Of a DNA stretch of 64,000 bases, positions 25,711 to 63,711 are shown one piece after another (positions within the stretch are counted from its first letter, which is position 1; every line of letters starts with the position of its first letter). A program made the position numbers and the translations under genes. Origin of the DNA: an uncultured Phycisphaeraceae bacterium (lineage in GTDB: Bacteria > Planctomycetota > Phycisphaerae > Phycisphaerales > Phycisphaeraceae); contig CAWCWR010000001.1 of the NCBI GenBank assembly GCA_963799335.1, forward strand, positions 436,414 through 500,413, in the 5' to 3' direction. Under the pieces are notes generated by a model. That model searched no databases. It was given only the letters and a program-made list of their open reading frames with translations, and had not been told where the DNA came from.

Positions 25711-25849
25711 ACCCTCCCTCCGCCCCCCCCTCACCCCCCCTTCGCCCCCCGTCCCGACACCTTTTCACCTCGAACTCATTCCACGGTTCCCCGCGCCTCA
25801 TCTCGCAGTCTCTCCTACCCCGGCCGTCCCGCGTTCAGACTCCGCTGGC

Positions 25850-27452: not shown

Positions 27453-27759
27453 AAGTAGGTCGAGGTTGAGTTGTAGTTGTGGTTGTGGTTTTGAAGGCAA
27501 GCGCCTCCGCGGCGGGCGGCAAGGGCGTTGCCCCTGCACCCCGAAGGCAAACTGCCGCCCACGGCCCGGCAACGGTTGCGACCCCCCCCCCCCCCCGCCA
27601 CCCTCCGCCATCCCCCTGCCCGGCGGATTGTTCTTGGTGTGTTGGCATGTCGTGCGTAAGATGAAAGCTCCGGGGGTTTAACTTCCGGGGCTAATGTTCC
27701 GGGGTTCATTTCTTTTTTGTCTCTGCGATCTATTTCATCTCTCTCGAAAGGGTTGGCTC

Positions 27760-28197: not shown

Positions 28198-28432
28198 ACC
28201 GCCCCCTCCCCCCTCGCCCCCCTCGCCCCCCTCGCCCCTTCTCCTCCCCCCGCAGTGATCGGTGCGGCCGTTTCTCCTCGACAGGGTTGCCCACTTTGTC
28301 AACCCCCGTCCCGCGAGAGCGGCGCGGGGGACCTTGATCGTTGACGTGGCTCATTCGCGAAACTGAAGGCGCGGGGACAACGCAAGTATTTTTGTGGGAA
28401 GCGGGGTTGGGGGGTGAGGGGCGGGGAGGGGG

Positions 28433-29869
28433 GTGAGGGGGGGGAGGGCTACACTCTTGGGCCCCCGACGTGGGGGTGGCGTGAGTGGTTGTTTAATAGA
28501 AGTTGGCGGTGGTTGCCCCGTGATTCCTTTCGTTGCCTGGTTTGTGTGGTCCGCCGCCGCGTTGAGTGCGGCGGTGTGGGCCTGGTTGAATATCCCGCGG
28601 TACGCGAAGTTGCTGCGTCACACGTTGGCTCAGCCCGGCGAAGGGTTCGCGGACGGGCCGGAAGAAGCAGGCGACGGGGGGCCGAGGGCGGGGGGGGGGG
28701 CGGGGAGGGGGGGCTGGCCGGGGGTGGCGATTTTGACGCCGGGGCGGGACGAGGCGGAGCATCTGCCCACGGTGTTGCCCGAGCTGTGCGAGCAGGACTA
28801 TCCCCGGCATCGGGTGGTGTTTATCGATGATGCGAGCGGCGACGCGACGCCGCGGATCACCCAGGCGATGGCCCAGCGGTACGACAACCTGACGGTGGTG
28901 CGCAACGAGCAGCCCCCCCCGCCGGGGTGGATGGGCAAGTGCTGGGCGATTCAACAGGGGTACGAGGCCTTGGTGAAGCTCGAAGCGGAAAGTGCGGGGT
29001 GCGAGCTTGAAGGCAAGCGGATCAGCAAAACATCGTCGGAGGACTCGCCCGATTTATCTGCGGGCCTCGAAGACCGTGCATCGGCCTTCGATTGGCTGTG
29101 TTTCACCGACGCGGACATCCACTGGCACCCGCTGCTGCTGCGGCGGGCGATGGCCTACTGCGCGGAGCACGACGCGGAGTTGCTGGGCGTCGCGCCGACG
29201 CTGCGGTTCGGCAGCGCCGCCGAGGCAATCGTGCAGCTGCAGCTGATCCTGGCGCTGGGATTGATGCTGCCCTACGACGCGGTGGTGAACCCCGACTCGC
29301 CGCGGACGCTCACCGGCGGGGCGTTCATCCTGGTCAAGCGCCGTTACTACGACCAGATCGGCGGCCACACCGCGGTCAAGGGCGAGATGGTCGAGGACCT
29401 GAAACTCGGCATGGCCCTGAAAGCCGCGGGCGCCCGGCACCGCGTCGCGCTGGCGGGCGACCTGCAGTGGTGCCGGATGTACGACGGCCCGGCGGACCTG
29501 TGGGAAGGCCTGACCAAAAACGCCTACGCCGGGCTGATGCACCGCTGGTGGCTGGCGCTGCCCGCCTGCGGAATCCTGCTGATCACCAACGTGCTGCCGC
29601 CGGTCTACTTCATCACCGCGCTGGTCTGGCTCATCCTGGCCCCCGGCGGGTGGATGCCCGCCACCGCCCTGCTCTTCTCCGTCGTCGCGCTGCTCGCCCA
29701 GGCCCGCGCCCTCAACGCCGTACGCAAACTCATGGACCTGCCCGCCCGCTACGCCTGGACCACCCCCCTGGGCAGCGCCGCCTACCTCCTCATCATCCTC
29801 GCCAGCATGATGCAGTACCACACCCGCGGCAACACCTGGAAAGGCCGACGCTACCACGCCGAGTCCTAA
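28433..29869 (+). CDS. Family 2 glycosyltransferase (membrane-bound, HpnB-like topology)
   Basis: VAILTPGRDEAEHL...VVFIDDASGDAT...FTDADIHW (GT-A DxD), then C-terminal transmembrane helices. The start is uncertain within the Gly-rich 5' region. Confidence 0.75.
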   Translation: MRGGRATLLGPRRGGGVSGCLIEVGGGCPVIPFVAWFVWSAAALSAAVWAWLNIPRYAKLLRHTLAQPGEGFADGPEEAGDGGPRAGGGAGRGGWPGVAILTPGRDEAEHLPTVLPELCEQDYPRHRVVFIDDASGDATPRITQAMAQRYDNLTVVRNEQPPPPGWMGKCWAIQQGYEALVKLEAESAGCELEGKRISKTSSEDSPDLSAGLEDRASAFDWLCFTDADIHWHPLLLRRAMAYCAEHDAELLGVAPTLRFGSAAEAIVQLQLILALGLMLPYDAVVNPDSPRTLTGGAFILVKRRYYDQIGGHTAVKGEMVEDLKLGMALKAAGARHRVALAGDLQWCRMYDGPADLWEGLTKNAYAGLMHRWWLALPACGILLITNVLPPVYFITALVWLILAPGGWMPATALLFSVVALLAQARALNAVRKLMDLPARYAWTTPLGSAAYLLIILASMMQYHTRGNTWKGRRYHAES

Positions 29870-29924: not shown

Positions 29925-30095
29925 CATCAATCCTTCTTTGACAGGATCAACAGGATTTTGCGGATCAACAAGATCAAGGCAATCCGGTCAATGCTATTGA
30001 TAGCGCTTGCGAGGGGACGTTTGATTCGCCACCCCTATCTCCGGATCCTGTCAATCCGGCCTTAAATCTTGTTCATCCTGTCGAAGCCTTTCTTC
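29925..30095. repeat. Divergent member of the GACAGGAT/ATCCTGTC MITE-like repeat family
   Basis: Contains tttgacaggatcaacaggatt ... ggatcctgtcaatcc ... gttcatcctgtcgaag, the same motifs as the elements at 37296 and 39465, with a palindromic internal layout. Confidence 0.4.
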
Positions 30096-30802: not shown

Positions 30803-30820
30803 ACCAAACTAATGATTGAA

Positions 30821-30868
30821 CGCCATGACGCCATGACGCCATGACGCCAAGACGCCAAGACGCCAAGA
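30821..30868. repeat. Tandem octamer array (CGCCATGA)x3-(CGCCAAGA)x3, with an inverted partner (TCTTGGCG) at about 31013-31050
   Basis: Read directly: cgccatgacgccatgacgccatgacgccaagacgccaagacgccaaga, and downstream ccgcgtcttggcgtctccgcgtcttggcgtttgc. Confidence 0.75.
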
Positions 30869-31082
30869 AATCAAGCAGCCCTATCAAACAAACAACTTCA
30901 GCCACAGACCGCCGACCACAACCTGGTTTTTAGCAATTCGCTCAAATCAACTTTCACAACTCCCCTGCCTTGCATCCGCGTCCATCCGCGGTTTCAACTT
31001 CTTATGTTTTTCTCCGCGTCTTGGCGTCTCCGCGTCTTGGCGTTTGCATCACACCCCCCACTCCTGATTAAGCGATTTTCCC

Positions 31083-33702: not shown

Positions 33703-34419
33703 TCAGGCGAATGCCTTGGGAGCGGCCGTTATCGCCGACGGCGACGGCGGGGCCGACATGGCCGTGACGTACGCCCGGCCCCGGGCCTCCAGCGAGGCGG
33801 CGATCTGGTTCCACCGGCCGCGGACTTCCTGCTCCGCCCGCTCGGCGGTGGCGTGCCCGGTCGCCGCCTCGGGATCGGACTCCGCCCGGCGGAGCAGGCT
33901 CCGCAGCGGCAGTTTTCGCACCTGCCCAAAGACCTGTCGGCCCGCCTCGACCAGCGGTTCGTCAGCCTGTTTCACCAGCCGGCGGATCGTCGCCGCCGCC
34001 CGTTGCGCCGCCGCCGGATCGTCCAGGTCGCCCCGCCGCAGGGCCACGTCGATCAGGTACGCCCGGGACCAATGCTCCGCGAGCTTGTTGGCCACCGCCC
34101 GCACCGTCAAAAAGATCAGCACCTTCTTGAACAGCTTCAGCGGCAGCTTGATCACGAACCACACCGGCGTCAGCAGGCAGCCCCGCAGCCGCTGGCTCCA
34201 GGACCGCGAAGGATAGAACGCCGCCGCGACCGCCGGCTCCAGCGCCCGGCCGTGGGTGTCGGCCACCGCCGCGGGCACCCGCCGCGCCAGCAGGCTCTCC
34301 ACCACGTCATCGACCAGGGGCAGCGGGATGATCGGCGTGAGGCCCGCCAGCGTCGCACTGGCGTAACGACGCCAGTCAAACTCGGCGGGCGGCACGGGGG
34401 TGGGGTCGCTTACTTCCAT
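33703..34419 (-). CDS. Hypothetical protein (amphipathic/transmembrane segment; no family recognised)
   Basis: Clean 238-aa ORF, co-oriented with the GIY-YIG gene and 18 bp upstream of it. Hydrophobic LTPVWFVIKLPLKLFKKVLIFLTV segment. Confidence 0.5.
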   Translation of the reverse strand: MEVSDPTPVPPAEFDWRRYASATLAGLTPIIPLPLVDDVVESLLARRVPAAVADTHGRALEPAVAAAFYPSRSWSQRLRGCLLTPVWFVIKLPLKLFKKVLIFLTVRAVANKLAEHWSRAYLIDVALRRGDLDDPAAAQRAAATIRRLVKQADEPLVEAGRQVFGQVRKLPLRSLLRRAESDPEAATGHATAERAEQEVRGRWNQIAASLEARGRAYVTAMSAPPSPSAITAAPKAFA

Positions 34420-34610
34420 GAGTCAAGCATAAACGGTCCGCCTCTCGGAGTATTAAACCGGGCAGTGATTGCTACGACGACGGCGGACAGCGGGCGGGAC
34501 TTCGGGTTGCGCCCGACCACCGGCGGTAAGCCCCTTGCGGTTTAATTCATCACTCCGCTGACCCCCCGACCTCGATCCCACCCCGCGTGCGCGGAGGTAC
34601 CATTGGCCCC

Positions 34611-35024
34611 ATGCATCAGGAGGACCTGGACATCTCGACCCGCGGCCAGGGCACGACCGAGATCACCTCACCGGTCCGCGAGGTGCTGCGCGTATCGGGT
34701 TTGACCCGCGGATTGGTGCACGTCTTTTGTCAGCACACGTCCTGCTCGCTGGTGCTGATGGAAAACGCGGACCCGTCGGCGCGGCAGGATTTAGAGGCTT
34801 ATCTAGAGCGGTTGGTGCCGGAGGACGAGCCGTATTTCACGCACACCGCGGAGGGGGCCGACGACATGCCGTCGCACATCAAGATGGCGCTGACGCGCAG
34901 CAGCGAGACGATCCCGTTTGCCGAGGGTCGGCTGCGGCTGGGCACGTGGCAGGGGTTGTTCTTGTGGGAACACCGCACGGCTCCGCACACCCGCCGACTG
35001 GTGGTCACGGTCACGGGGGGGTGA
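34611..35024 (+). CDS. yjbQ: YjbQ/UPF0047 family protein (secondary thiamine-phosphate synthase-like)
   Basis: VHVFCQHTSCSL...HIKMALTRSSETIPFAEGRLRLGTWQGLFLWEHR. Confidence 0.85.
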   Translation: MHQEDLDISTRGQGTTEITSPVREVLRVSGLTRGLVHVFCQHTSCSLVLMENADPSARQDLEAYLERLVPEDEPYFTHTAEGADDMPSHIKMALTRSSETIPFAEGRLRLGTWQGLFLWEHRTAPHTRRLVVTVTGG

Positions 35025-35053
35025 CGAGGGGGTGAGGGGGTGGGGGGGGGCGA

Positions 35054-35941
35054 TCAATCGGCGGCGGGGGGCAGCCAACCCAGTGACACCAGGAAGTCGT
35101 CCATCGCTTGCACGGTGGCGTGGTGCATTTCCATCGACTCGGGTCGGGGATTGAAAAAGCCGTGGGGCTGATCGGGGTAGAGGATCAGGTCGCTGCGGAC
35201 GCCGAGGGCGGTCATCTCGTCGCGGACTTTCTCGGCGGTTTCGACGGGGATGAGTTTGTCCTTCGTGCCCAGCAGGACCAGGGTGGGCGGCATCTCGGCG
35301 TGGAGGTTGTGAACGGGGGAGAACTCGCGCCACCGGTCGCCGAGTCGGTTCTGGCCGTAGCCTTCGGGCGAGTTGTCGTAGACGGGATTGAACAGCACCA
35401 GCGCGTCGGGACGCTGGCTGATGTCCGCCAGCGTGTCGGAGGCGGGGGGTTGGTCGTCGATCCAGTCGGCGGTCAGGGTCGCCAGTGCCATCGCCAGGTG
35501 CCCGCCCGCCGAGCCGCCGCCGGCCCCCAATCGATCGGGGTCGATGCCGTAGGCCGGGGCGTGGGCGCGGGCGTACCGCATCGCGGCGACCGCGTCTTTG
35601 ACGCATTCAAACGGCGTGGTGCCGTGGCCGTTTTTCGTGCGGTAGTCCGCGGTGATGCCGACGATCCCGCGGTCCGCGAGGTGCTGCGCCTGGCTTTTAA
35701 GATGGTTACGGTTGCCGCCCATCCATCCGCCGCCGAAGAAAAACAAGACCGCGGGCGCGTGGGCTTCGGGCGTGTGATCCGCCGGGAAGAAGTATTCGAG
35801 ATGCAGCTCGGCCTGCGGGGTGGTCTTGTAAACCACCAACGTCGCCGGCAACACCTCGACAGATTCCCCCCGCGCGGAACCGCAGGCCAACAACGGTAAC
35901 GCGATGAGGAGTGACCGCCATGGCCAAGCAAGCATGTTCAT
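35054..35941 (-). CDS. Secreted alpha/beta-hydrolase (esterase/lipase, BD-FAE-like)
   Basis: Signal peptide, oxyanion FFFGGGW, nucleophile elbow GGGSAGGHLA, and a catalytic His near the C-terminus. Confidence 0.8.
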   Translation of the reverse strand: MNMLAWPWRSLLIALPLLACGSARGESVEVLPATLVVYKTTPQAELHLEYFFPADHTPEAHAPAVLFFFGGGWMGGNRNHLKSQAQHLADRGIVGITADYRTKNGHGTTPFECVKDAVAAMRYARAHAPAYGIDPDRLGAGGGSAGGHLAMALATLTADWIDDQPPASDTLADISQRPDALVLFNPVYDNSPEGYGQNRLGDRWREFSPVHNLHAEMPPTLVLLGTKDKLIPVETAEKVRDEMTALGVRSDLILYPDQPHGFFNPRPESMEMHHATVQAMDDFLVSLGWLPPAAD

Positions 35942-35989
35942 GATCGTTCTCGGTGATTTTGGTTAATTAAATTGATTGCGTCAATGCCC

Positions 35990-37103
35990 CGCCGAAGACC
36001 CGAAACTTACAAGGCGTCGATCACCATCTGGCCGATGTCGGTGGTCGAATATCCCGAGCGGTCCAGGGACTTGCCGGCAAACTTCGGGGTCACCGCCTGT
36101 ACCGCCTGGCCGATCTTTTGCCCCGCCTGCACCGCGGCGGCGTGGCCCTTGATCCGGCCGACCTCGCGCAGCAGCAATCCCATCGAATCGATGGCGGCGA
36201 TGGGGTTGGCCTTGTTCTGACCGGCGATGTCGGGGCGCTGCCGTGCACCGGCTCGAACATGCTCGGGGCCTTCCCCGTCGGATCGAGATTGCCCGAACTG
36301 GCGATGCCCATGCCCCCCGCGATCGCCGCGCCCAGGTCGGTGATGATGTCGCCAAACATATTGGGCACCACGATCACGTCGTAGATCTCCGGGCTGCTGA
36401 CCATGTACATGCAGCACGCATCGACGTGGTGGTAATGCGTTTCGATCTCGGGAAACTCCTCCGCCACCTCGTGGAACGTCCTCAGCCAGGTCTCGCCGGC
36501 GAAGTTGAGCACGTTGGTTTTGTGCACCAGCGTGAGGTGGCCGGCGTAGCCCTGATTTTTGCGATTCTTGGCGGTGTCAAAGGCGTAACGGACGCAGCGC
36601 TCCACGCCGTGGCGGGTGGCGACCATGGTCTGGTTGGCGACCTCGTGGGGCGTGCCCTTGCGCATGATCCCGCCCAGGCCGCAGTAGAGGTCTTCGGTGT
36701 TTTCGCGGACGCAGACGAAGTCGATGTCGTCGGCGGTCTTGTTTTTCAGCGGCGTGTCGATGCCGGGGTACAGCTTCACGGGACGCAGGTTGATGTACTG
36801 ATCCAGGTCGAAACGCAGCTTCAGCAGGATGCCCTTTTCGATCACGCCGCCCGCGAGGCGGGGGTCATTGGGTTGGCCGCCCACGGCCCCGAGCATGATC
36901 GCGTCGAAGCCGCGGAGCGTGGCGATGTCCTCGTCGGTCAGCACGTGGCCGGTGTCGAGGTAGTGGGCCGCGGAAAAGGGGAAGTCCGTCCGGGCCACGT
37001 CGAGCTTGACACTGGGGGCCACGGCATCGAGGACATCGAAAGCCTGCTCGACGACTTCGGGCCCGATGCCGTCGCCGGCGAGGTTGGCTAATCTAAGGGT
37101 CAT
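35990..37103 (-). CDS. 3-isopropylmalate/tartrate dehydrogenase family enzyme, C-terminal frameshift near 36240
   Basis: GDGIGPEV...VRENTEDLY...NLDPTGKAPSMFEPVHGSAP, then the frame is lost. The correct C-terminus (DIAGQNKANPIAAIDSMGLLLREVG...) lies in track ORF 36007-36417. Confidence 0.8.
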
Positions 37104-37295
37104 GGCAAAAGCTCCGGGAAACGAGACGCGGGAGAGAAAGGGGGGGGCGGGCGAAACATCTTACGCCAAAGGACCGCCGCTGCCGTGCCCGGAGCGCGGG
37201 CATGACCTGCACGGGGCGAGGGTGGTGGGAGGGGGGGAAGGGGGTGGAACCGACCCGAACGACGGCCGTTGGCTATTGTTGTTCCGCTGTGGATC

Positions 37296-37545
37296 GTTAA
37301 GTCGACCACGGAGGCTAGGAGACACGGAGTCACGGGAGAAAGGCAAAAGGCCTTTGACAGGATGACAGGAAGAAAGGCAGGATCGACAGGATTCGGAAAA
37401 AGACATTGATACTGATCTAAGACGATGAAGGCAGGTAACGAAAGTCAGCATCAGATGTATTCCGAACCCTGTTGATCCGGTTTCCATCCTGTCATCCTGT
37501 CAAATTTGCCTTGCCTGCCTTGCTCCGTGTTTCCTACCCCCCGTG
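37296..37545. repeat. MITE-like element copy A (about 245 bp, roughly 27-bp imperfect terminal inverted repeats beginning cgaccacggagg)
   Basis: About 95% identical to the reverse complement of 39465-39718. The ends read gtcgaccacggaggctaggagacacggag ... ctccgtgtttcctaccccccgtggtcgcctcgc. Confidence 0.85.
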
Positions 37546-37590
37546 GTCGCCTCGCTTGCCTTCTCCCCACGAACCCGCGCAAATAGCGAA

Positions 37591-38250
37591 TCACGACGCC
37601 GGGCCGTCGACTTGGCCGCTGGTGGCGGGGCGGAGGGCTTCGTCGAAGGTTTTGAGTTGGATCAGCAGCTGGTCCATCGCGGTGCGGAGGTCGGCGGCGG
37701 ATTGGCGGGCCTGTTCGAAGACCGGGACCATTTTATTCACCGCCGGGGTGGTGGTGTCGTTGGCGAGGTAGGTGCGGATGTCGTCGAGGTGTTGGAGGAA
37801 CGGGCTGTAGGCGTTCTGCAAATTTTGGAACGCGGGGTCCAGGGCGTTGAAGTCTTCGCGGACCGCGACGAGGCGTTCCTGGGCAGCGCGGCGGAGGTTC
37901 TGGTTTTCCATTTCGAGGATGTCGCCGTACCAGTGTTCCTGGTATTTGGCGAACTGGCGTTTGGTCGCGGCGCGCTGCTCGGCGACGTCGTCGGCGCTTT
38001 CATTCATTCGGCGGATTTGTTTGGTCAGGTCCTTGAAATCGCCCGCCAGGTTGGTGCCGGACTGGGGCAACCGCTCAAGGGCGGTGAGGGTGGTGCCGAC
38101 TTGATTTTTGCTGGTCTGGACCGCGGTGCCCAGGCGGTCGGCAGATTCGAGGGTGTTGCGGGCGCCGTCGTGCTTGTCATAGGCCGTGGAGGCGCAGCCG
38201 GTGAGGGTAAGAAAACCAACGACGATCAGTAGGGGAAAAATCGATTTCAT
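37591..38250 (-). CDS. Lipoprotein (DUF2959-like)
   Basis: Lipobox LTLTGC. Helical, Q/A-rich. Confidence 0.7.
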   Translation of the reverse strand: MKSIFPLLIVVGFLTLTGCASTAYDKHDGARNTLESADRLGTAVQTSKNQVGTTLTALERLPQSGTNLAGDFKDLTKQIRRMNESADDVAEQRAATKRQFAKYQEHWYGDILEMENQNLRRAAQERLVAVREDFNALDPAFQNLQNAYSPFLQHLDDIRTYLANDTTTPAVNKMVPVFEQARQSAADLRTAMDQLLIQLKTFDEALRPATSGQVDGPAS

Positions 38251-38426
38251 GATGGAGTCTTTCGGACAGAACCGCGTGGCGTCATGAGGCAGGCGGAGCG
38301 GAGCGGAGCGGGGTGCAGGGTGCGGGGTACGGGGTTCGGGGTCAAGTCATCAAGCAGGAAGCGGGGGCGAAACCGGAGCAGGGGGGGGGGCGGACCCGCG
38401 GGGGGGGCGGGGGCTAAACTACGGCC

Positions 38427-38972
38427 ATGAATGATAGCGCTACGGAACTAAACCTCGCCACCACGGGCATCGTGATCGTTGACCACGGCTCGCGGCGGGC
38501 GGCAAGCAACGAGATGTTGGAAGTGTTCGTGCGGCAGTTCGCCCCCGACAGCGGGTACGACATCGTCGAGCCGGCGCACATGGAGCTGGCCGAGCCGTCG
38601 ATCGAGACGGCGTTCGACAAGTGTGTTGAGCGGGGGGCGACGAAGGTCGCGGTGGTGCCGTATTTTTTGTCGCCGGGCAAGCACTGGCACCAGGACATCC
38701 CCAACATCACGCGAGAGGCGGCGCTGCGGCACCCGGGCGTCGAGTTTGTGGTCACCGCCCCGATCGGGCTCAATCCGATGATGAAGCAGGTGATCGCGAC
38801 GAGCGTGGGCTACTGCCTGGATCAGATCCAAGGCAAGGTCGCGGAGTGCGCCAGCTGCGCGGGGACCGGTCGGTGCAGCCTGAAGACGGCGGAAGAAGCT
38901 GAGGTCGTGGAGTTCAAGGGCGGCGGTGGGGGTGGGCATAGCCACGGCCACGGGCATGGCCACGCGCATTGA
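38427..38972 (+). CDS. cbiX: Sirohydrochlorin chelatase CbiX (short form) with His-rich tail
   Basis: IVIVDHGSRR...VAVVPYFLSPGKHWHQDIP, and a C-terminal GGGGGGHSHGHGHGHAH tail. Confidence 0.8.
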   Translation: MNDSATELNLATTGIVIVDHGSRRAASNEMLEVFVRQFAPDSGYDIVEPAHMELAEPSIETAFDKCVERGATKVAVVPYFLSPGKHWHQDIPNITREAALRHPGVEFVVTAPIGLNPMMKQVIATSVGYCLDQIQGKVAECASCAGTGRCSLKTAEEAEVVEFKGGGGGGHSHGHGHGHAH

Positions 38973-39037
38973 TAGAAGGGGTGGGAGCTAACGTTATAGA
39001 TAGAGGGCGAGGCGGGGAGGGCAAGGTTTCGCCGCGG

Positions 39038-39433
39038 TCACCGCCAAGGCGGGGCGTCGTCGTCTTCATCTTCCTCCTCATCAAGCTCGTCCTCCGGCGT
39101 CCAGCCCGTCGGCGGGTCGTCTTCATCCTCCGGCCCGGTTTGGGGGGACTCGGCGTCGGCGTCATCATCGTCGTCGGCGGGTTCGGCGGTGACGCGGCGG
39201 GCGGATTCGGACCAGATGTCCAGGGGCTCGGTGGCGGGTTCGGGTTGCCGGGTGTCGTTGAGCCGTGCCCGGCGGCGGGCGAGTCGTCGCGCGATCGCGA
39301 TGCAGAACACCACCAGCGCCAGCGCGAGAAACACCGCCCCGACAAAGGCGAGCGTGCCGAAGCCATTGCGCAAGCTACGCAGCTGCGCATCGGAGTAGGA
39401 GGTGGCCAGCAGGAGGGGGAGCGGCAAAAGCAC
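39038..39433 (-). CDS. Hypothetical small membrane protein with acidic C-terminal tail
   Basis: One transmembrane helix, then a D/E-rich tail. No family recognised. Confidence 0.45.
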   Translation of the reverse strand: MLLPLPLLLATSYSDAQLRSLRNGFGTLAFVGAVFLALALVVFCIAIARRLARRRARLNDTRQPEPATEPLDIWSESARRVTAEPADDDDDADAESPQTGPEDEDDPPTGWTPEDELDEEEDEDDDAPPWR

Positions 39434-39464
39434 GGGATTAGTTTACTTTGCGGGGGGGCAGCGG

Positions 39465-39718
39465 AGGCGATCACGGAGGGTAGGAAACACGGAGCAAGGC
39501 AGGCAAGGCAAATTTGACAGGATGACAGGATGGAAACCGGATCAACAGGGTTCGGAATACATCTGATGCTGACTTTCGTTACCTGCCTTCATCGTCTTAG
39601 ATCAGTATCAATGTCTTTTTCCGAATCCTGTCGATCCTGCCGTTTTATCCTGTGCATCCTGTCAAAGGCCTTTTGCCTTTCTCCGTGACTCCGTGTCTCT
39701 TACTCTCCGTGGTCGCTT
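39465..39718. repeat. MITE-like element copy B (inverted relative to copy A)
   Basis: Reverse-complement match to 37296-37545, with a small indel near ccgttttatcctgtgcatcctgtc. Confidence 0.85.
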
Positions 39719-39750
39719 CGATACGGATCGGTCGCGGGGAGCAGCGGAGA

Positions 39751-40614
39751 TCAAACGTTTGCCGGTTTGGGGCCGCGGTAGGTGCAGGCGGTCTTGGTGG
39801 TTTCCCAGACGGTGAGTTCGTCCAGGTGGCTGCCGGGCAGGGCCTCCGCCAGCGGGTCGGCCAGCATGTCCCAGGCGACGGCGGCGATGTGTTCGACCGA
39901 CGGGTTGTGGTCGGCAAATCGGGGGACATCGACGTTGAGGTGCTTGTGGTCCAGGGGGTCGATCAGGGCGCGATCGACCACGGCATCGAGGGCGGACACG
40001 TCGGTGGTGTGGCCGGCGGGGTCGATCGGGCAGCGGGCGACGACCTGGACGCGGTAGTTGTGGCCGTGGCCCGCGGGGTTGTTGCACTTGCCGAAGGTCA
40101 GGCGGTTCTGCTCGTCGCTGTGGCCCGGGACGTGGAGGCGGTGGGCGGCGGAGAATTCGTAATGTTGTTTGATCAGGACGTGTTGGGGCATGGGGAGAGG
40201 TGGGTTTGGGGGGAGGCCGTCGGCCGAGGGGTCGGAAGCGCGTTGGACGGCATAACTGAGGTAGGGCGTGAGCTGCAGCGTGAGGCAAGTCACCCGGTGC
40301 TTGAGGGGGGGCTGGAGGTCCGCCAGCAGGTCGCGGAGCAGTTGACCCAGGGGCACGTCCGCGGCGTCGGCTTCGTCGGCAATCGCGGCACGCAGGCGGC
40401 GCAGGGCGTGGTCGCGGACGGCGGTGTCGATGTGCTTGATATTGATGAAGTAGCCGGTGTCGGGGTCGGCCTCGCCCCGGCAGGTCACGTGCAACTCGTA
40501 GTACCGCGCCAGGCCCCGGGGCGGGGGCCAGGCAGAAAAAGTGTTGTCACGTGGCGTCGGCTCGTCCGCCGAACCGTTGAGGCAAAAGCGGACGGTGCGG
40601 GTCAGATCGAGCAT
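39751..40614 (-). CDS. 6-pyruvoyl-tetrahydropterin synthase family protein, two tandem domains (QueD/PTPS-like)
   Basis: Two PTPS-like halves, with CNNPAGHGHNYRV and EFSAAHRL motifs. Confidence 0.8.
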   Translation of the reverse strand: MLDLTRTVRFCLNGSADEPTPRDNTFSAWPPPRGLARYYELHVTCRGEADPDTGYFINIKHIDTAVRDHALRRLRAAIADEADAADVPLGQLLRDLLADLQPPLKHRVTCLTLQLTPYLSYAVQRASDPSADGLPPNPPLPMPQHVLIKQHYEFSAAHRLHVPGHSDEQNRLTFGKCNNPAGHGHNYRVQVVARCPIDPAGHTTDVSALDAVVDRALIDPLDHKHLNVDVPRFADHNPSVEHIAAVAWDMLADPLAEALPGSHLDELTVWETTKTACTYRGPKPANV

Positions 40615-40620
40615 GGCGGG

Positions 40621-40670
40621 CAGGGGTCGGGTTCAGGGTTCAGGGGTCAGGGATCAGGGATCAGGGATTT
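40621..40670. repeat. Tandem heptamer array (TCAGGGR)x6, G-quadruplex-capable
   Basis: caggggtcagggttcaggggtcagggatcagggatcaggga, read directly. It is an inverted partner of the array at 40801-40860. Confidence 0.8.
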
Positions 40671-40800
40671 TAGATTGGCGTGGGGCGGCACGAGAGTTTA
40701 GGCGTCGAGCGGATTGACAGAGACAGATTGTCTCTTGGCGGGATGCCGGCCTTGCTAAAACCTTCGCCACGTTTCACCCGGCCCGAGTACCAGGCGAAAT

Positions 40801-40860
40801 CTAACTAACCCCTGCCCCCTGTCCCCTGTCCCCTGTCCCCTGTCCCCTGTCCCCTGCACC
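40801..40860. repeat. Tandem heptamer array (TCCCCTG)x7
   Basis: cccctgccccctgtcccctgtcccctgtcccctgtcccctgtcccctgcaccctg, read directly. Confidence 0.8.
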
Positions 40861-40905
40861 CTGACAACTGACCCCCGACCCCTGCCCGCGCCTTACACTG
40901 GCGCG

Positions 40906-41933
40906 ATGAAGAAGATGCTTCTGATCCTGGCGGCGGGGGTGGCGGTGGGTTTGCTGGGTTGGGGGGTCTATTCCGCGACGCGGCCGGGGTCGGTGCTGAT
41001 CAGTGAGGCGGAGGCGGCGGAGCGGTTGGAGCTGCTGGGCGAGCGGTTCAGCGCGGCGATCGAGAACAAGCGGGACGTGTCGCCGTTGCTGCCGGAGGTT
41101 AAATCCATCGTCGCCCAGCGGCCGCGGCTTCGGGCGGGGCGGACGCTGCTGGGGCAGATTTACGCCCGGCAGGAGCAAACCGATCGGGCCTACGCGGAGT
41201 TCGCCGCGGCGCTGGAACTGGGCCCGGACGATGCGCAGCTGCAGAACTTGGCGGGGACCGCGGCGCAGCTGATCGGCGAGGCGGGGTTGGCCGAGACCCA
41301 CCACCGGCTGGCGGTGAAGGCGGCCCCGCAAGAGCCGGCGTTGCTGCTGCCGTTGGCGGACGTGCTGATCGAGGCCCAGCGGTGGAACGAGGCGCGGGAC
41401 GTGCTGCTCACCGCCCTGGAAATGGAGATGACGATGCACGCGGCCCACGCGGCGCTGTCGGATGTCTTTGCCGGGCGGGCGCTGGCGTCGGACGACGCGG
41501 AAGCGCGGGGCGACGACCTGGTGCGGGCGATCGATCAGATGGAGCGGGCGCGGCGCAGGTGCGCAACGACCCCAAGGGCCGTGAGCAGGAGGTGGTGTAC
41601 GTGCAAAAGCTGGCGCGGCTGTACGCGCAGCGGGACGAGCCGATGGAGGCGGTGCGGGTGTTGGACGATTTGATGCCCGAGGAGGGCCGGCTGCGGCCCG
41701 AGGTGCTGGAGGCGATGGCGGGGTACCTGGAAGCCAACGGCCAGGTCGCGCTGGCGGGGTTGCAGTACGAGATGGCGGCCGACGATCGGCCGGGCGAGGC
41801 GTACTACCCCGCGCAGGCGGCGCGGTGGTACGCCAAGGCCGGCAACCGCGACCGCGCGGCCGCTATGGTCGAGCGGGTCCGGCTCGTCGCGCCGCGGCAC
41901 CCGGTGGTGGCGTGGTGGGATACCACTCGGTGA
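40906..41933 (+). CDS. TPR-repeat protein with N-terminal signal/transmembrane segment, frameshift near 41560
   Basis: MKKMLLILAAGVAVGLL, then TPR-like A/L-rich repeats. The C-terminal half continues in track ORF 41382-41933. Confidence 0.65.
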
Positions 41934-41942
41934 TGGTGGATA

Positions 41943-42168
41943 GGCAAGTTTGGAACCGCGGATGGACGCGGATCAACGCGGATAAAGACAAGCTCAAAAT
42001 CCAGATACTTAAGTTCAACTACAGTTGGTAGACATCTAAAATCGCCAAAATAGCACTTTTAATTATATATATCGCGCTCAGTGAACATAAAGATGAGACA
42101 ACCACCCGGTCTCAATATCCGCGTCCATCCGCGTCCATCCGCGTCCATCCGCGGTTCCAAACTTGCCT
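41943..42168. repeat. AT-rich 225-bp intergenic element bounded by 27-bp inverted repeats (caagtttggaaccgcggatggacgcgg / ccgcgtccatccgcggttccaaacttg) and holding (TCCATCCGCG)x3
   Basis: Read directly. It lies between the convergent TPR and hldE genes. Confidence 0.6.
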
Positions 42169-45695: not shown

Positions 45696-47554
45696 GTGTC
45701 CCCCTCTCCCCTTACCTTTCAAGGACGGAAGGTTCCCCCCGTGCGCACCATCGCGATCATTAACCAAAAAGGCGGCTGTGGCAAAACCACGACGTCGATC
45801 AACCTCGCGGCGGTGCTTGCCCTGCGTGGCCACCGCACGCTGCTGGTGGACATGGACCCCCAGTCGCACTGCGCCTTGGGCCTGGCGGTCCCCGAAAGCC
45901 AGATCGAACAATCGATGGCGGACCTGTTGGAGCACGGCCTGGACGGCACGTTGTCGGTCTCCGACATCACCTGGCAGATCAGCCGCGGCCTGGACCTGGC
46001 CCCGTCGTCGATGGCGCTGGCGATGATGGAGCAGCAGCTCGCCACCGCTTCAGACAAGGACCGCCGACTCGCGCAGGTCCTCTCGACCGCGGCCGACCGC
46101 TACGACTTCTGCATCATCGACTGCCCCCCCAGCATCGGGCTGCTGACGTTCAACGCGCTGCGCACCGCCGACGAAGTCCTGATCCCCGTGGAGACCGGCT
46201 ACTTCGCGATGCAGGGCGGCGTCCGCCAGGAACAAACCATCGAGATGCTCGCCCGCCGGGTGGGGCAGCGGGTGCGCTTCCGCGTGCTGCCGACGATGTA
46301 CGACGTGCGGACCAAGCTGGCCCGCGAAATCCTGGCGGAACTCAAAAAGCACTTCGGCCAGCGCGTCCTGCCGATGGTCATCAACTTCAACAGCAAGCTC
46401 AAAGAAGCCGCCAGCTTCGGCCAGCCCATCACCGAATACGATGCGGCCTCCCGCGGGATGCAGGACTTCGAGCAACTCGCCGACTGGTTGGCGGCCAACC
46501 CCCCCGCCGCCCCGACCCCCGCGCTGCCGTTGGAAAACGAAGCCCCCGCCTCGGCCGACGCTCAAGCTTCCGCCCATGCCACCGCGGACACGATGACGGA
46601 CTCCACCCCCCCCGTTCCCACCCCCGGCCTGTCCACCGGGGCCGCGCTGCCGACGGGCCCGGGGCCCGAACGCCAATCCCCCGCCGACCGCACCGCCCGC
46701 CCCGCCGCCGCCCTCTCGCCCCTCCACCCCGCGGCCCCCCACGCCCCGGCCCCCGTCGGCCGGTCCGCCAGCGGCAACCCCGCCCTCAGCCGGGCCGCCG
46801 AGCTGGTCGAACGTGCCCGCGCTCTCTCCAACCGCCCCGCCAACCTCAACGATCCCTTCAAACCGGCCCCCCCCCCTCTCGCCCCCCCTCTCGCCTCCCC
46901 TCTCGCCTCCCCGACCGCCTCCCCGACCGCCTCCCCGACCGCTCCCCCCAGGTGCCCCAACCCGTCATCGTGCCCGCCTCCATCACCACCCCCCCTCATC
47001 CCGCCGCCGCCGCCCCCCCGGCCGCGACCCCGGCGGAGAAAACCAACAACGGCCCGGCCACCCTCGTCCCGATCCCCACGCCCCCCGCGATCCCGGGCCC
47101 CGACGCCCCCCGCAGCGAACAACTCGCCCAGCTCTACGGCGTCCGCCTCACCTCCCGCGGCACGTTGTTCGTCCAGCCCGCCGACGCGGTGGGGAACGGG
47201 GACAAGCTGGCCATCGCCGGGGATTTCAACAACTGGAACCCCGCGCAGACCCCCATGATCCGCGACGAAAACCTCGGCGTCTGGCGGGCCTGCGTCCAGA
47301 TCCCCGCCGGCCGATACCGCTACCGGCTGGTCAAAAACGGCCAATGGGTTCAGGACCCCTTCAACGCCACCGTCGAGGCCAACCCCTTCGGCGAACTCAA
47401 CAACCTCATCGAAATCAAACCCTCCCCCCTCGCGAACTCCGCCTCCTCCGGCTCCGCGAACTCCGCCCCGGTCTCCACGGTCAAACCCATCGCCGCCGCG
47501 GCCCCCACCATCGTCACCCGGCCCGGAACCTCGCCCCTTCCCGCCAACGTCTAA
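45696..47554 (+). CDS. ParA/MinD-family ATPase with a Pro-rich linker and C-terminal AMPK-beta-type glycogen-binding domain (CBM48). The fusion is inferred across a frameshift at a C7 run at about 46940-46950
   Basis: Deviant Walker A IAIINQKGGCGKTTTSINLA, and DMDPQ. After the ATPase core a real-looking linker (NPALSRAAELVERARALSN...PTASPTASPTAPP) ends at the sequence gctcccccca. The +2 frame then continues PQPVIVPAS...LAIAGDFNNWNP...GVWRACVQIPAGRYRYRLVKNGQWVQDPFN...FGELNNLIEIK. This matches the AMPK1_CBM consensus (SGSFNNW...EGEHQYKFFVDGQWTHDP...GTVNNIIQV). Confidence 0.7.
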
Positions 47555-47618
47555 CCCCCCCCCCTCGCCCCCCCTCGCCCCCTTTCCCCTTGCCGCACGG
47601 ACGCGGCCCCCCACTGTC

Positions 47619-49696
47619 ATGGACGATCAGCACCCGCCATCCTCCCCCCGTCCCCGCGAGTCGGCGGGCTCCCCGCCCGCGTCACGCACCCTCGACTCCC
47701 TCGCGGACCTCTTCCTCACCGACCCCGGCCACCCCCCCGCCCCCCCCGTCACCCCCTCTGCCCCCGTCACCCCGGCCCCGCCCGTCGCGCAGGACCCGAC
47801 CTCCGCGGAAACTTCTCCCGCCCCGGGCTCGGATGCCATCGACCCCGACGCCCCGGCCGACGATCACCTGACCGGACCCGCCCCCATCAAGCTTCGGCCA
47901 AAGGTCGCGAACACCCCCCCGTCCCCCTCCTCTCCTCCACGCCCCCTGGCGCCGCCCCGGGGCCACTCCACGGCCCGCCGTTGGCCCCCCTTTCCGAGGC
48001 GGCGGCGACGGCCGGGTCCGAGGATTGGCCCGCCGACTCGCTGGCGGCGGCGGCGGAACTCCAGGAACTCGCCGAGTGGGTCCAACAAAACCTCGAAGTC
48101 TCCCCCTCCCCCCCCTCTCCCCCTTCTCCCGCCGTGCCCTCCTCCGTCGCGGCGGACGCGCCCGCGCTCCGCTTGGCGGGCGGATCGGACCGGGATGCCG
48201 ATGCCCAGTGCCGATCTGAAATGTCGGACGCGGCCCCCCCCTCATCCCCGCCCCCCTCGTCTGCCCACGACACGCCTGCGGGTCACCTGATTGCCGAGAC
48301 CGACGGCCCGACCCGCGCGGTGGCGGAGGCGGTGTTGCTGGGCAACCTGCCGGGCATGGCGGGGCCTTGGCTGACCCAGTACGGGCAGCGGCTGGCTCAG
48401 CAGGACGGCACCGTCGCCATCGTCCACCTGGCGGGCGACACCGCGGACCTCGAACTCATCGAACCCACCTCCCGCCCGCCGGCGGAAGCCACCGACGGCG
48501 ATCCCCGGCAGATCCACCGCCGCCAGCACGCCCGGGGCGCGACGCCGGGCCTCGGCTGCGCATCCCGCCCGGCGGCTTCCGCGGCCGGCCCCTGGTCGAG
48601 GTCCTCGACCACCTCTGCCGCCTGGCCCACGCCCCGGTCCGCACGGTGTTGCTGCATCTCGACGCCACCGCGGCGTCGGTGCCGCAGCTGTTGGACCTGG
48701 ACTATTGGACCCTGCTCAGCGGGGCCGACGACGCCGCGATCGTGGCGGGGTATCGCCTGCTCAAGCAGCTGCTGGACGCCGACGAGCGGGTGGCGCGGGC
48801 CCACGTCGGGCTGATGGTCGTGGGCAGCGACCACTCGGCGGGGCAGAACGCGCTGACCAAGCTCCGCGCCGCGGTGGGCCAGGGGTTTCACGCGCCGTTT
48901 GATCTGCTGGGCCATCAGCAGCGCAGGTGACGCCGGCGCACTGCCGCACCCTCGGCCGGTTTTCCGTGGACGCCGCCGCCTGGGATGGTCTCCGCGAATG
49001 GCTGATGGAGTTGCAGCCCCCCGAGGCCGCGGCGCAAACCGCGGCGGTCGCGGAAGAATCGGTGGAAGTCCGGGCGTCGCTGGAGGCCGAGGCTTCCGGT
49101 TCCTCCCGTCGCGCAAGTGCGGGGGCGGCGATGCACCAACCTTTCCGTCCGGCGGCGGGGGGCAAGCTCCCGCCCCTTTCCCGGCCGATCGAAGATCGCG
49201 CCGCCAAGCACGCGACGCACGGCCCGTCCTCTTCTCCCCGTTTCACCGCGGACCTGCACCGGGGGACTCCCCCGACCTGTTCGAGTTGATCGACACCGAC
49301 CCCCGCACCACCGCGTCGATCCCCGGCGGCCTCCCGCTCGAAGCCCGCTGCCCCCGTCAGCCCGACACCCAGCTGGCGGTGGATGCCGCCGGCCGACTCC
49401 ACCTGCTGCACCGCCACGACTCGGCCCACGATGACCTGCCCACCCCCCGCGAGGCCATCGTCAACCTCGTGGCGGTCCGCGACTGGGCCCGGCAGCACCT
49501 CCAACTGCTCCAGCTCACCGAACGCACCCGGCACTTCGACCTCAACACCGATCCCCAGCTGCACCTGTTCACCGACCGGGCGGACCAGGCGGTCGGCCTC
49601 GTCGCCCAGCTCGGCGACCTGATCAAGCTCCACCTGCTGCGCGAAGTCACCCTCGGCGATCAGAAAACCCTCTTCTGCACCCCCCTCTCGGCCTAA
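47619..49696 (+). CDS. Large Pro-rich hypothetical protein, fragmented over at least 4 frames
   Basis: Consecutive overlapping track ORFs (47619, 47981, 48367, 48927, 48899) each carry protein-like segments, e.g. AVAEAVLLGNLPGMAGPWLTQYGQRLAQQDGTVAIVHLAGD, VLLHLDATAASVPQLLDLDYWTLLSGADDAAIVAGYRLLKQLL, and a C-terminal ...LIKLHLLREVTLGDQKTLFCTPLSA. Confidence 0.4.
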
Positions 49697-49848
49697 CCCC
49701 CCCCTCCCCCCCTCTCTCCCCTCCCTTCTCCGTTCCACGGGCAAGTCCGCTTGCGGCGACGAATCAGTCCGACGGCCTGGTTACCCGCGCGATTCACATC
49801 CCTCACAATGCCAAAACCCATCGCCCTCTTTGCGTTACGCTTACCCCC

Positions 49849-52506: not shown

Positions 52507-52632
52507 CCCCCCCCGCCCCCCGTCCCCATCGGGGGGGGCACGCCCGCCGGCGGTCTTTCGGGGTGCAGGGGCAGCGCCCCTGCCGCCCGCCGCGCAGCGC
52601 TTGCCTTAAAAACTCAGAAAGGGCAAAAACTT

Positions 52633-57530: not shown

Positions 57531-57741
57531 GTTGATCCTTCCCCTTCACGCCCGGCCGCCCACCCGCGGCCGGCGGTTTGTTTCCCCCCCCGAAAAAATC
57601 GGTTCCACGATAAATCGCTCTGCCTGGTGCATCCCGGAAGCCGACGCCGACGCCGAGGTCGCCGAAAAATCTGGTACACGCCCCCCCCTCCCCCCTTCTC
57701 CCTCCACCTTGCCTCCCCCCTGTCCCCAAGGACCACGTGCC

Positions 57742-58647: not shown

Positions 58648-58788
58648 GTGTCGGCTGAATATCAACACCGTGTACCTACATAATGTGATTTCCCAGATCA
58701 CCGATCGTGAGCGATTTCGATCGTTGCAAAACAAATACTAATTCCGTCGGCCCAACCGGTCGTCGGGACTTTTTTCATCGGAGAGAAG

Positions 58789-63704: not shown

Positions 63705-63711
63705 GCATTTT

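Follow-up and report, generated by a model that had tools for sequence, protein, structure and literature searches.

Paired tandem-array palindromes in intergenic DNA and the association of their array types with GxxExxY nuclease genes

The window considered here, the whole stretch of 64,000 nucleotides (64 kb) that was analysed, contains a 1.9-kb segment of three genes lying between two inverted copies of a short repeat, and the genes are as the initial annotation described them. The first (37591-38250, minus strand) encodes a DUF2959 lipoprotein (domain match E = 1.5e-9) with the N-terminus MKSIFPLLIVVGFLTLTGC, in which the lipobox can be read directly from the sequence. The second (38427-38972, plus strand) encodes a CbiX-type chelatase with a His-rich tail (CbiX match E = 1.1e-30), and the contig index holds no record of this exact protein. 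The third (39038-39433, minus strand) encodes a small membrane protein of 131 aa, with one hydrophobic segment and an acidic C-terminus, that is without a Pfam match and is conserved in relatives. Two of the genes form a divergent pair, which has an intergenic region to itself. Copy A of the repeat (37303-37549, 247 bp) occupies the gap between the DUF2959 gene and a gene of the isocitrate/isopropylmalate dehydrogenase family, both on the minus strand, and copy B (39468-39715) the gap between the gene for the small acidic membrane protein and a PTPS gene, again both on the minus strand. The two are about 95% identical as inverted copies, and the boundaries given here fall within 3-7 bases of those first proposed.

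In a gapped alignment of A with the reverse complement of B, identity sets in sharply at CGACCACGGAG (37303 / 39715) and is gradually lost past GTCGCCT (about 37552 / 39465). A central stretch of 161 bases (37379-37539 in A, 39638-39478 in B) is 100% identical, and the roughly 12 differences between the copies are confined to the arms, outside that stretch. A repeat finder reported inverted arms of 188 nt at 97% (37373-37560 / 39457-39644) and of 52 nt at 77%, ungapped (37303-37354 / 39664-39715). The flanks of A and B are unrelated to each other in alignment, and target-site duplications were found at neither copy, the flanks ..GTTAAGT / CCTCGCTTGCC.. of A and ..ATCGAAG / CCTCCGCTGCC.. of B being without direct repeat.

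Imperfect terminal inverted repeats of about 27 bp had been assigned to each copy. The inverted ends are real (in A, 37300-37347 is complementary to 37505-37552 over 48 nt at 77%), but complementarity is not restricted to them, and the element is palindromic throughout. Each of A and B is one long imperfect palindrome whose arms are layered tandem arrays, CACGGAG units on the outside and GACAGGAT units on the inside. The outer left arm of A (37303-37347, plus strand) reads CGACCACGGAGG..ACACGGAG..CACGGGAG, an 8-nt CACGGAG-type array of period 8 and consensus CACGGAGA that is mirrored at 37505-37549; the inner module (37353-37504) runs from TTTGACAGGATGACAGGA to TCCTGTCATCCTGTCAAA around a core of lower GC and is of the GACAGGAT type found across phyla, and the inner module of B (39513-39666) likewise consists of GACAGGAT arrays and a core. 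The entire A element folds into one hairpin with a minimum free energy of about -135 to -137 kcal/mol (-136.6 in one computation), at z = -13.4 against 200 dinucleotide shuffles and about -13 to -14 overall. GACAGGAT occurs 11 times in the window where 1.5 occurrences are expected, a count reached by 0/100 shuffles, and all 11 fall within A, B and a third copy, C. The inner modules of these three are capped by TTTGAC/TTCGAC ... GTCAAA/GTCGAA, so that T-run and A-run caps are present. Scans for sigma-70 promoters and intrinsic terminators revealed no signature inside A or B; Rfam gave 0 matches, rRNA included, over the whole 64-kb window at the gathering threshold, and for A at E <= 10 only generic long-hairpin (miRNA-precursor) models. 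Readings as DnaA-box arrays, a Spo0A box, a tRNA T-arm origin or, for TTGACA, a -35 promoter element were dropped for a misfit of spacing or sequence.

The third, divergent relative reported at the outset is also real. Copy C (29937-30085) is a GACAGGAT-type element with a glycosyltransferase gene on one side and a 224-aa ORF on the other, has TTYGACAGGAT...ATCCTGTCRAA in common with A and B, and folds with a hairpin z of -4.2. Three further elements are built like A and B from different unit sequences: element D (30820-31043), with (ACGCCAWG)x6 / (CTTGGCGT) arms and an inner ATCCGCGTCCATCCGCGG half-arm; element E (41942-42168), with (GACGCGGAT)x3 / (ATCCGCGTCC)x4 arms and an AT-rich core between them; and element F (40621-40887), in which (CAGGGAT)x7 faces (CCCCTGT)x7 in the divergent PTPS/TPR intergenic region. 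The arms of all six, A-F, consist of at least two to three tandem units of 8-10 nt in inverted arrangement, and their hairpins far exceed shuffled sequences in stability (z from -4 to -15). The initial annotation was right in describing a non-coding family, bounded by inverted repeats, for which the window encodes no enzyme; its picture of an isolated 245-bp family gives way to a very large class of layered, modular tandem-array palindromes that occupies many intergenic regions of the window and extends across phyla.

Comparison with related contigs showed elements at several of these sites. At the B site an element with homologous ends is present in three related planctomycete-like contigs. 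The A site is filled in the window, carries a homologous arm (partly filled) in contig L121, and has only a plain hairpin in L122 and L124. L121 also has an element with three nested layers in the position identical to that of D, and a counterpart of F at the matching site; the PfkB-side site of E is kept in both L121 and L122. Compared with L121, a 7.3-kb segment is inverted, and E lies at one of the two breakpoints. Site conservation spans 10-20% divergence in coding sequence, and at the conserved sites the interiors change yet remain palindromic. Since relatives also have elements at the B, D, E and F sites, random recent insertion of A and B is not supported as such.

Palindromes with GACAGGAT arrays are present in more than 10 bacterial phyla. 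A scan of a genome collection with the pattern GACAGGAT-N115-145-ATCCTGTCRAA gave at least 120 loci and, among the loci listed, 63 element instances with at least two units per arm, which came from Planctomycetota, Verrucomicrobiota, Lentisphaerae, Kiritimatiellae, Acidobacteriota, Deltaproteobacteria, Anaerolineales, Saprospiraceae/Spirosoma, Desulfotomaculaceae, Gemmatimonadaceae, Hydrogenedentota and others. The family consensus is TTTTGACAGGAT-TWACAGGAT-TWACAGGAT ... mirror ... GTCAAAA, with a unit spacing of 9 or 8 nt (138 and 52 cases, respectively, in the instances listed), and T at positions -2 and -3, outside the pattern requirement on left arms, is 86-91% conserved. Family cores are mostly without structure (median z -0.4), and single genomes contain families with common cores. 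No target-site duplication was seen at gene-less copies aligned with their flanks. Pairing of left and right ends 400-5000 nt apart among the first 120 loci gave one real long form (L093), a metagenome scan with the outer arm CGAYCACGGRGNNTARGARRCACGGAG gave 0 matches, and a literature search on the array strings returned nothing relevant. No transposase recurs beside the 63 listed instances, and the sole recurrent neighbour is a 125-aa PD-(D/E)XK gene.

This gene encodes a nuclease of the GxxExxY family (PF13366/TIGR04256), and in a tblastn search of the loci listed it was found in 7, all of which have multi-unit elements, and in none of the chance-hit loci. Inverted arrays, scored as bracketing when they lie within ~100 nt of start and stop and exceed the 95th percentile of mismatched pairs, enclose 41/66 metagenomic genes for the 125-aa nuclease; the same score was reached by 5/69 neighbouring genes, one of these five being a second PF13366 gene (Fisher p = 7e-12). 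Arrays flanking GxxExxY genes include GACAGGAT (many loci), CACGGAG/CACAGAG (L203, L192), GCCAAGACGCCAAG/GCCAAG (L206) and CGCGGAT (L161), together with types that contain no GGA (ACAGAAT, CACGAAT, CGCAGAT, GCCAAG), so that each of the window's four main array types is represented. The arm of element E, for example, matches the array that follows the GxxExxY gene of L161 at 96.6% identity over 29 nt. Nuclease clade co-varies with array type, protein identity being 57.6% within an array type vs 45.0% between types, a difference that 0/2,000 permutations reached. The two arms of a single cassette are closer to each other than to same-type arms from other cassettes (p = 0.013 and 3e-5), and L227 and L229 encode the same protein with arrays of different lengths.

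A gene-bearing counterpart with the same array types thus exists elsewhere, but these elements encode the PD-(D/E)XK nuclease and not a known transposase, and the inspected examples (L160, L134, L203) show no target-site duplication. At L036, gene-less cores align to the first ~90 nt of the nuclease ORF (z = 9.1 and 14.2) and are decayed 5' ends of the gene, produced by internal deletion; of the four loci at which cores were compared with adjacent genes at the nucleotide level, this was the only positive one. The cores of A, B and C gave no significant nuclease-gene remnant in a six-frame comparison with GxxExxY proteins, and tblastn found no GxxExxY gene in the 64-kb window. As the window has no PF13366 gene, A-F are classed as gene-less derivatives and not as full cassette members.

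All members of the nuclease family have D66 and E76, and most also retain K78. Profile searching for PF13366 / GxxExxY yielded 30,740 clusters at 50% identity (E <= 1e-3), and a scan of viral contigs for relatives yielded one locus only. PADLOC gave marginal Cas4 matches for one nuclease protein only, a PHROGs search with the nuclease proteins gave nothing, and a PDB sequence search gave nothing significant. Two nuclease clusters were seen inside the same DUF1156/DUF499 operon. Identical nuclease proteins occur on many contigs, with one genomic context per protein and no sign of recent jumping. The family is catalogued as being of unknown function, with multiple transfers between bacterial divisions (PMC3424549); searches of the literature on GxxExxY, PF13366 and TIGR04256 produced nothing beyond this catalogue entry, and no paper was found that connects array-armed hairpins with the nuclease gene.

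Since the array types of the window bracket GxxExxY genes elsewhere, A and B are best read as gene-less cassette members. It is probable, if by no means assured, that they are gene-less copies of a class of array-armed palindromes whose full form brackets a PF13366 nuclease, and that they are renewed by break-and-copy. A, B, C, D, E and F would then be empty, non-autonomous forms that depend in trans on a nuclease gene at another place in the genome, if one survives. Such elements would persist at fixed intergenic sites, where a break induced by the nuclease or by the hairpin would be repaired from another copy (homing or gene conversion), and would not depend on cut-and-paste DDE transposition. 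Renewal of this kind would explain the missing target-site duplications, the nested layers and the conserved sites with swapped interiors, as well as the 161 identical bases common to A and B, which are only 1.9 kb apart; the arms would stay complementary because they pair. As RNA, each copy is predicted to form a ~95-bp interrupted stem between co-directional genes, which would be a likely RNase III or decay-barrier site. At the present locus A and B would be common inhabitants of intergenic DNA and not a dedicated switch. Against this explanation, the arm-clustered differences between A and B could equally well have arisen by tandem-array slippage, and site conservation over 10-20% divergence could reflect host function and not selfish persistence; the nuclease gene itself may in some contexts be a working host component. 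The single context of each identical nuclease protein and the absence of gene remnants from the A-C cores also count against it.

A wider proposal, that GxxExxY genes and tandem-array hairpins together make up an undescribed, cross-phylum selfish class of the homing type, is offered tentatively and is rather more doubtful than not. A minimal, Cas4-like PD-(D/E)XK nuclease would recognise the 8-9-nt arrays, or their cruciform, and would copy itself or a hairpin in by break-and-repair, while thousands of gene-less, nested intergenic hairpins would be homogenised by gene conversion, A and B being a freshly converted pair. Homing genes may be free-standing or intron-borne, and I-Ssp6803I is a PD-(D/E)XK homing endonuclease. 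In both systems a small nuclease gene lies in or beside its presumed target, and the spread proposed here would likewise proceed by break-and-copy without duplications and leave gene-less target alleles behind; unlike a homing site, the presumed GxxExxY target would be a repeated array at many loci and not a single conserved gene site. Should PF13366 genes be the autonomous core of array-armed palindromes, a very large family would acquire a testable role, an explanation would be at hand for a common class of intergenic repeat at which metagenome assemblies of Planctomycetota, Verrucomicrobiota, Acidobacteriota and further environmental phyla break, and small mobile DNA would have a nuclease-based, duplication-free route. 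Dependence on a single-copy enzyme in trans, as proposed for the present elements, is also a feature of REP/REPIN sequences, which resemble them further in being intergenic hairpin palindromes without target-site duplications, at conserved sites and often clustered or in tandem. The palindromic unit of a REP, however, measures 20-40 nt, bears an unpaired GTAG or CGTC tag and goes with a Y1 HUH (RAYT) transposase (PMC3733652), whereas the present elements are 150-250 nt long with arrayed arms, have no GTAG/CGTC tag at their ends and are tied to a PD-(D/E)XK gene.

The hairpins could instead be maintained by the host, as RNA or DNA structures without current mobility that act as decay barriers, RNase III sites or insulators, with ordinary gene conversion accounting for the likeness of A and B. 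This is unlikely, though it deserves serious weight, as it fits the very stable folds, the position of A and B each between co-directional genes, the conserved sites with changing yet palindromic interiors and the co-evolution of the arms of one element. Its nearest described analogue is the 23S rRNA intervening sequence (IVS) of Coxiella and Leptospira, a selfish-looking, patchily distributed and supposedly horizontally acquired unit of ~430-550 nt whose small ORF, of unknown function, lies inside a complementary terminal stem of 28 bp that is cut by RNase III (PMC4990558); the literature on S23p and PF05635 provided this analogy only. Both the IVS and the present class are selfish-looking, patchy units in which a small ORF is enclosed by complementary ends forming a long stem, but IVSs reside inside rRNA helices and encode a four-helix-bundle protein (S23p), whereas the present elements are intergenic, have arrayed arms and carry a PD-(D/E)XK nuclease gene or none. 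Pairing alone leaves the cross-phylum conservation of GACAGGAT units and TTTT/AAAA caps unaccounted for, as it does the tracking of one nuclease gene family by the arrays, and the lack of terminator and promoter signatures in A and B further weakens a host role. With respect to RNA-level effects, host maintenance is compatible with the nuclease-linked explanation and differs from it only in denying nuclease-driven spread.

MITE-like, independent insertion had been suggested initially, and the terminal inverted repeats on which such a view draws are indeed present. A classical MITE would derive from an insertion sequence by deletion, and a DDE transposase that recognises those repeats would move each copy by cut-and-paste, independently, into intergenic sites. 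The small, non-coding elements with three related copies in 10 kb, the variable filling of the A site (full in the window, partial in L121, a plain hairpin in L122 and L124) and the common-core families within single genomes all agree with this, and, as with MITEs and their parent insertion sequences, short inverted-repeat-bounded copies exist in multiple related versions per genome beside a longer, gene-bearing form with the same ends, the gene-less form arising by internal deletion in L036. The identification is nonetheless improbable. A defining test failed, no target-site duplication being seen at A, B, the inspected gene-bearing relatives or the flank-aligned gene-less copies. The family also has no linked DDE transposase, and the partner gene that recurs beside the 63 listed instances is that of the 125-aa nuclease. 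Conservation of the B, D, E and F sites between relatives also argues against independent insertion. Copies are nested in layers, their arms are tandem arrays of 8-9-nt units, and we know of no insertion-sequence ends built from three 9-nt units.

Inversion of the 1.9-kb segment between the two repeats, proposed as a switch of promoter context for the three genes, is very improbable as a regulatory device. Inverted repeats with 95% identity and 1.9 kb between them do offer homologous inversion a substrate, and element E marks a breakpoint of the 7.3-kb segment that is inverted in comparison with L121. RecA-mediated flipping may take place at low frequency. The order and orientation of the PTPS, small-protein, cbiX and DUF2959 genes are nevertheless identical in the window, L121, L122 and L124, a scan of ten neighbouring proteins detected no recombinase domain, the enclosed divergent pair has its own intergenic region, and an independent contig backs the junction of the window on the A side.

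It is hardly credible that the ACAGGAU and CACGGAG units are GGA motifs of a CsrA/Rsm-type sponge or target titrating a CsrA-like RNA-binding protein: ACAGGAUG agrees with the CsrB repeat CAGGAUG and is similar to the SELEX consensus, and GGA is present in many array types of this lineage, but in the predicted fold of a full-length transcript the GGA arrays pair with mirror UCC arrays, sister array types around the same gene family are without GGA, Rfam matches of A go no further than generic hairpin models, and Bacteroidota, which to our knowledge lack CsrA, contain the elements. A local duplication or assembly artefact, which two near-identical copies lying close together might suggest, is effectively refuted by the unrelated flanks, by copy C and several sister elements and by the homologous ends in relatives; A is not an artefact of assembly because the independent public assembly Logan ERR12040027 reproduces the sequence and its A-side junction in contig L125, at 99.9% identity over 38851-37376. 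This contig ends at 37376, at the edge of the stretch in which A and B are 100% identical.

The paired inverted copies that the initial annotation placed around the DUF2959 lipoprotein, cbiX and small acidic membrane protein genes are real, and the three enclosed genes are as it described them. Inverted arms were located by a repeat finder at 37373-37560 / 39457-39644 (188 nt, 97%) and at 37303-37354 / 39664-39715 (52 nt, 77% ungapped), and gapped alignment of copy A with the reverse complement of copy B, in which identity sets in sharply at CGACCACGGAG and wanes past GTCGCCT, delimits A to 37303-37549 and B to 39468-39715. They show about 12 differences, none outside the arms, and over 161 bases 37379-37539 of A matches 39638-39478 of B exactly. 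A public Logan contig (99.9% identical) has the same cbiX-DUF2959-A junction and ends at 37376, the edge of this identical stretch, which is how a repeat should behave in a de Bruijn graph. The divergent third relative, copy C (29937-30085), was also confirmed; the window has 11 occurrences of the GACAGGAT unit where 1.5 are expected, each of them within A, B or C. The ends of A and B are inverted, as had been proposed, but they are not limited to 27-bp terminal repeats, since each whole copy folds as a single long imperfect palindrome (MFE -136.6 kcal/mol, z = -13.4) with about 95 base pairs across its centre. The arms are layered: CACGGAG-type 8-mers (CGACCACGGAGG..ACACGGAG..CACGGGAG) make up the outer arm, GGCAAAAGGCC is a short linker to the inner arm (TTTGACAGGAT-GACAGGA-..-CAGGATCGACAGGAT), and inside this lies a lower-GC core; the period-8 arrays were corroborated by Tandem Repeats Finder.

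Further elements of this build, with different unit sequences, lie between 28 and 43 kb of the window. Element D (30820-31043) sets (ACGCCAWG)x6 opposite (CTTGGCGT) with an inner ATCCGCG half-arm, element E (41942-42168) sets (GACGCGGAT)x3 opposite (ATCCGCGTCC)x4, and element F (40621-40887) sets (CAGGGAT)x7 opposite (CCCCTGT)x7; a G/C-rich inverted pair of 9-nt arrays, CCCCCCTCG / GGGGGGTGA, at 28202-28448 has a very stable fold (z -7), and all these sister elements fold much better than shuffles. C-rich or G-rich 9-nt arrays of the same units occur also at 20082-20159, 25714-25761, 46689-49740 and 57681-57721, in many intergenic regions, and may add one more array type to this class of palindromes. 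Between the divergent DUF2959 and cbiX genes (38293-38420) lie (GCGGA)x4 and (GCGGGGT)x5 arrays and long runs of G, for which nothing in the vicinity is an obvious mirror partner.

The GACAGGAT module proved to be distributed well beyond the planctomycetes. A scan of the genome collection with the single pattern GACAGGAT-N115-145-ATCCTGTCRAA returned at least 120 loci, many by chance; among the matches listed, at least 63 instances have two or more units in each arm, and they are spread over more than 10 phyla. In these listed matches the consensus is an A-rich stretch, TTTT and then GACAGGAT TWACAGGAT TWACAGGAT, with T at -3 and -2 conserved at 86-91%, positions that the left-arm pattern had left free. 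Units in the listed matches, mostly three per arm, are spaced by 9 nt (138 cases) or 8 nt (52 cases), and the cores in this set are shared within one genome, unrelated across genomes and mostly unstructured (median z -0.4). Whole elements sometimes stand in tandem arrays, as at locus L015.

When the ORFs adjoining the 63 listed instances were clustered, a single recurrent family emerged, a protein of about 125 amino acids identified as GxxExxY (TIGR04256, E = 1e-40; Pfam PF13366), whose gene was found by tblastn in seven of the listed loci, all seven with multi-unit elements and none a chance-hit locus. Its position relative to the arrays differs by locus: inside one element, with its left array on one side and its core on the other (L093), between left-array units 1 and 2 (L044), between two complete hairpins (L036, L075, L108), or beside other arrays, of CACGAAGG units and ATCACG units (L067, L115). 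The association was extended by a metagenome scan with the GxxExxY alignment, in which 593 of the 600 matches listed were relatives and 80 loci were kept. Inverted flank similarity was scored against mismatched upstream/downstream pairs for the 66 genes that had 150 nt or more on each side; among these listed matches 41/66 GxxExxY genes exceeded the 95th percentile and 20/66 the 99th, compared with 5/69 neighbouring genes from the same loci above the 95th, one of these being a second PF13366 gene (Fisher p = 7e-12, Mann-Whitney p = 3e-15). The typical cassette (L160, L134, L203), about 520-560 bp in total, has three 8-9-nt units per arm, a 30-70 nt spacer, the ORF, a 10-70 nt spacer and the mirrored arms. 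Array types at the gene comprise GACAGGAT, GACAGAAT, CACGGAT, CACGAAT, CGCAGAT/CGCGGAT, GCCAAGACGCCAAG, GCAAAGACGCAAAG, CACAGAG/CACGGAG and GGGGAT types, including all four main types of the window, and over 29 nt the right arm of E shares 96.6% identity with the downstream arm of the L161 gene.

A, B and C are members of a class of array-armed palindromes, in which D and E can also be placed by their array type; the gene-bearing members of this class carry a PD-(D/E)XK nuclease gene, and the window copies are gene-less. This cross-phylum link to GxxExxY nuclease cassettes is the more interesting outcome; PF13366 is catalogued as of unknown function with multiple transfers between divisions (PMC3424549), and the part of the literature covered yielded nothing that connects it with flanking arrays, so that an earlier description elsewhere is possible. 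A profile search gave 30,740 clusters of the family at 50% identity (E <= 1e-3); PADLOC and PHROGs gave no meaningful match for the protein, and a PDB sequence search nothing significant. In loci L207-L226 two protein clusters, P0006 and P0096, both occupy a defence-like operon, between its DUF1156 and DUF499/HEPN_Swt1 genes; GACAGGAT hairpins flank them, and about 20 samples show the same context. Several members (P0125, P0131, P0137 and others; 250-290 aa) contain a tandem pair of GxxExxY domains, consistent with read-through or fusion of tandem gene-plus-hairpin arrays as in L108.

Gene and arms have evolved together. Protein identity averages 57.6% within an array type and 45.0% between types, a difference reached in none of 2,000 permutations; the arms of one cassette are more alike than like arms of other same-type cassettes (p = 0.013) or opposite arms of other cassettes (p = 3e-5), and non-consensus units are mirrored across the cassette, for example ACATGAT / ATCATGT in L134. 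In L036 two gene-less cores align with approximately the first 90 nt of the adjacent ORF (z = 9.1, 14.2), and these two elements are deletion derivatives; L044, L075 and L108 showed no such alignment, nor were gene remnants detectable in the cores of A, B and C. Between L227 (1760-2000) and L229 (400-530), which encode an identical GxxExxY protein, the upstream arrays differ by several extra GACAGGAT..GGATCC blocks in one, indicating that arrays expand and contract quickly.

The few homologues of the DUF2959 protein led to contigs including L121, L122 and L124, syntenic with the window and 77-90% identical in coding DNA. At the B site, which separates PTPS from the small protein gene, all three have a palindrome whose ends are homologous (GCCGATCACGGAG ... 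CTTGCTCCGTGTCTCC..CTCCGTGATCGCC) and whose interior varies, L121 having outer arms and a 30-nt loop and the other two GCGGAT/GGAAC arrays. The A site retains a homologous left arm in L121, broken up by duplication and an insertion sequence, and is only a plain hairpin in L122 and L124; the D site of L121 has three concentric layers, from outside in GCCAAG, TTTTGAAACCGCAGATGGACGCGGAT and CAGGAT arrays, and the E site has GCCAAG and CGCGGAT layers in L121 and GCCAAG alone in L122. The elements have therefore long occupied particular intergenic sites, and their layers are nested and exchangeable. In L121 10730-12090, the A-equivalent site, a CACGGAG-type left arm is duplicated and a DDE_Tnp_1 insertion sequence sits inside one of the REP-like GGGCGGGCATACCTGCCCGCC palindromes.

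We infer that such elements would spread and be renewed by break-and-copy, in the manner of homing or gene conversion, and not by DDE transposition. Break-and-copy would account for missing target-site duplications, for sites that stay fixed while their interiors are swapped or nested, for the variable ORF position and for 161 identical bases in copies 1.9 kb apart, this last being explained equally well by slippage-prone array arms around a young core. Reading A and B as a non-autonomous, inverted-repeat-bounded repeat holds in spirit for these gene-less palindromes, but a reading as classical MITEs is not supported, as alignment with flanks revealed no target-site duplication at A or B; none was present at the gene-bearing L160, L134 and L203. 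A gene-bearing form with the same array types does exist elsewhere, encoding the PD-(D/E)XK nuclease and not a known transposase. The suggested inversion switch is disfavoured, the three enclosed genes keeping one order and orientation relative to PTPS across the window and the three relatives, with no recombinase domain in the ten neighbouring proteins scanned.

A larger block, 34608-41920 (7.3 kb; L121 6067-14396), running from a YjbQ-like gene through a TPR gene and including A and B, is inverted in L121 relative to the window and L122. One breakpoint falls at element E (about 14425-14710 in L121), and no array is visible at the other (34393-34607); rearrangements thus end at such palindromes, which is no demonstration of a switch mediated by A and B. 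The cumulative GC skew has its minimum and sign change at about 34000-35000, coinciding with a gene-orientation switch and the left breakpoint of this inversion.

Both A and B are flanked by co-directional genes (A by DUF2959 and the dehydrogenase, B by PTPS and the small protein) and contain no canonical terminator or promoter. As RNA they would be predicted to form long stems, and by analogy with rRNA intervening sequences (PMC4990558) they may act as RNase III or decay-barrier sites.

Other repeats in the window include a 41-nt inverted repeat with 93% complementarity (CTCCGCGGCGGGCGGCAAGGGCGTTGCCCCTGCACCCCGAA; 27505-27545 / 52557-52597) in distant intergenic regions, another small repeat family, and an 88-nt inverted repeat with 82% complementarity (7791-7878 / 57805-57892). 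The 57.8-kb copy of the latter encodes a prepilin-type N-terminal segment like those of the large DUF1559-like families of planctomycetes, and its translation suggests paralogous gene starts, not mobile DNA. Patches at 18300-18880, 58280-58900 and 63650-64000, with GC 10-15 points under the window average, are apparently coding and may be horizontally acquired genes; the remaining low-GC spots are ordinary intergenic or coding DNA.
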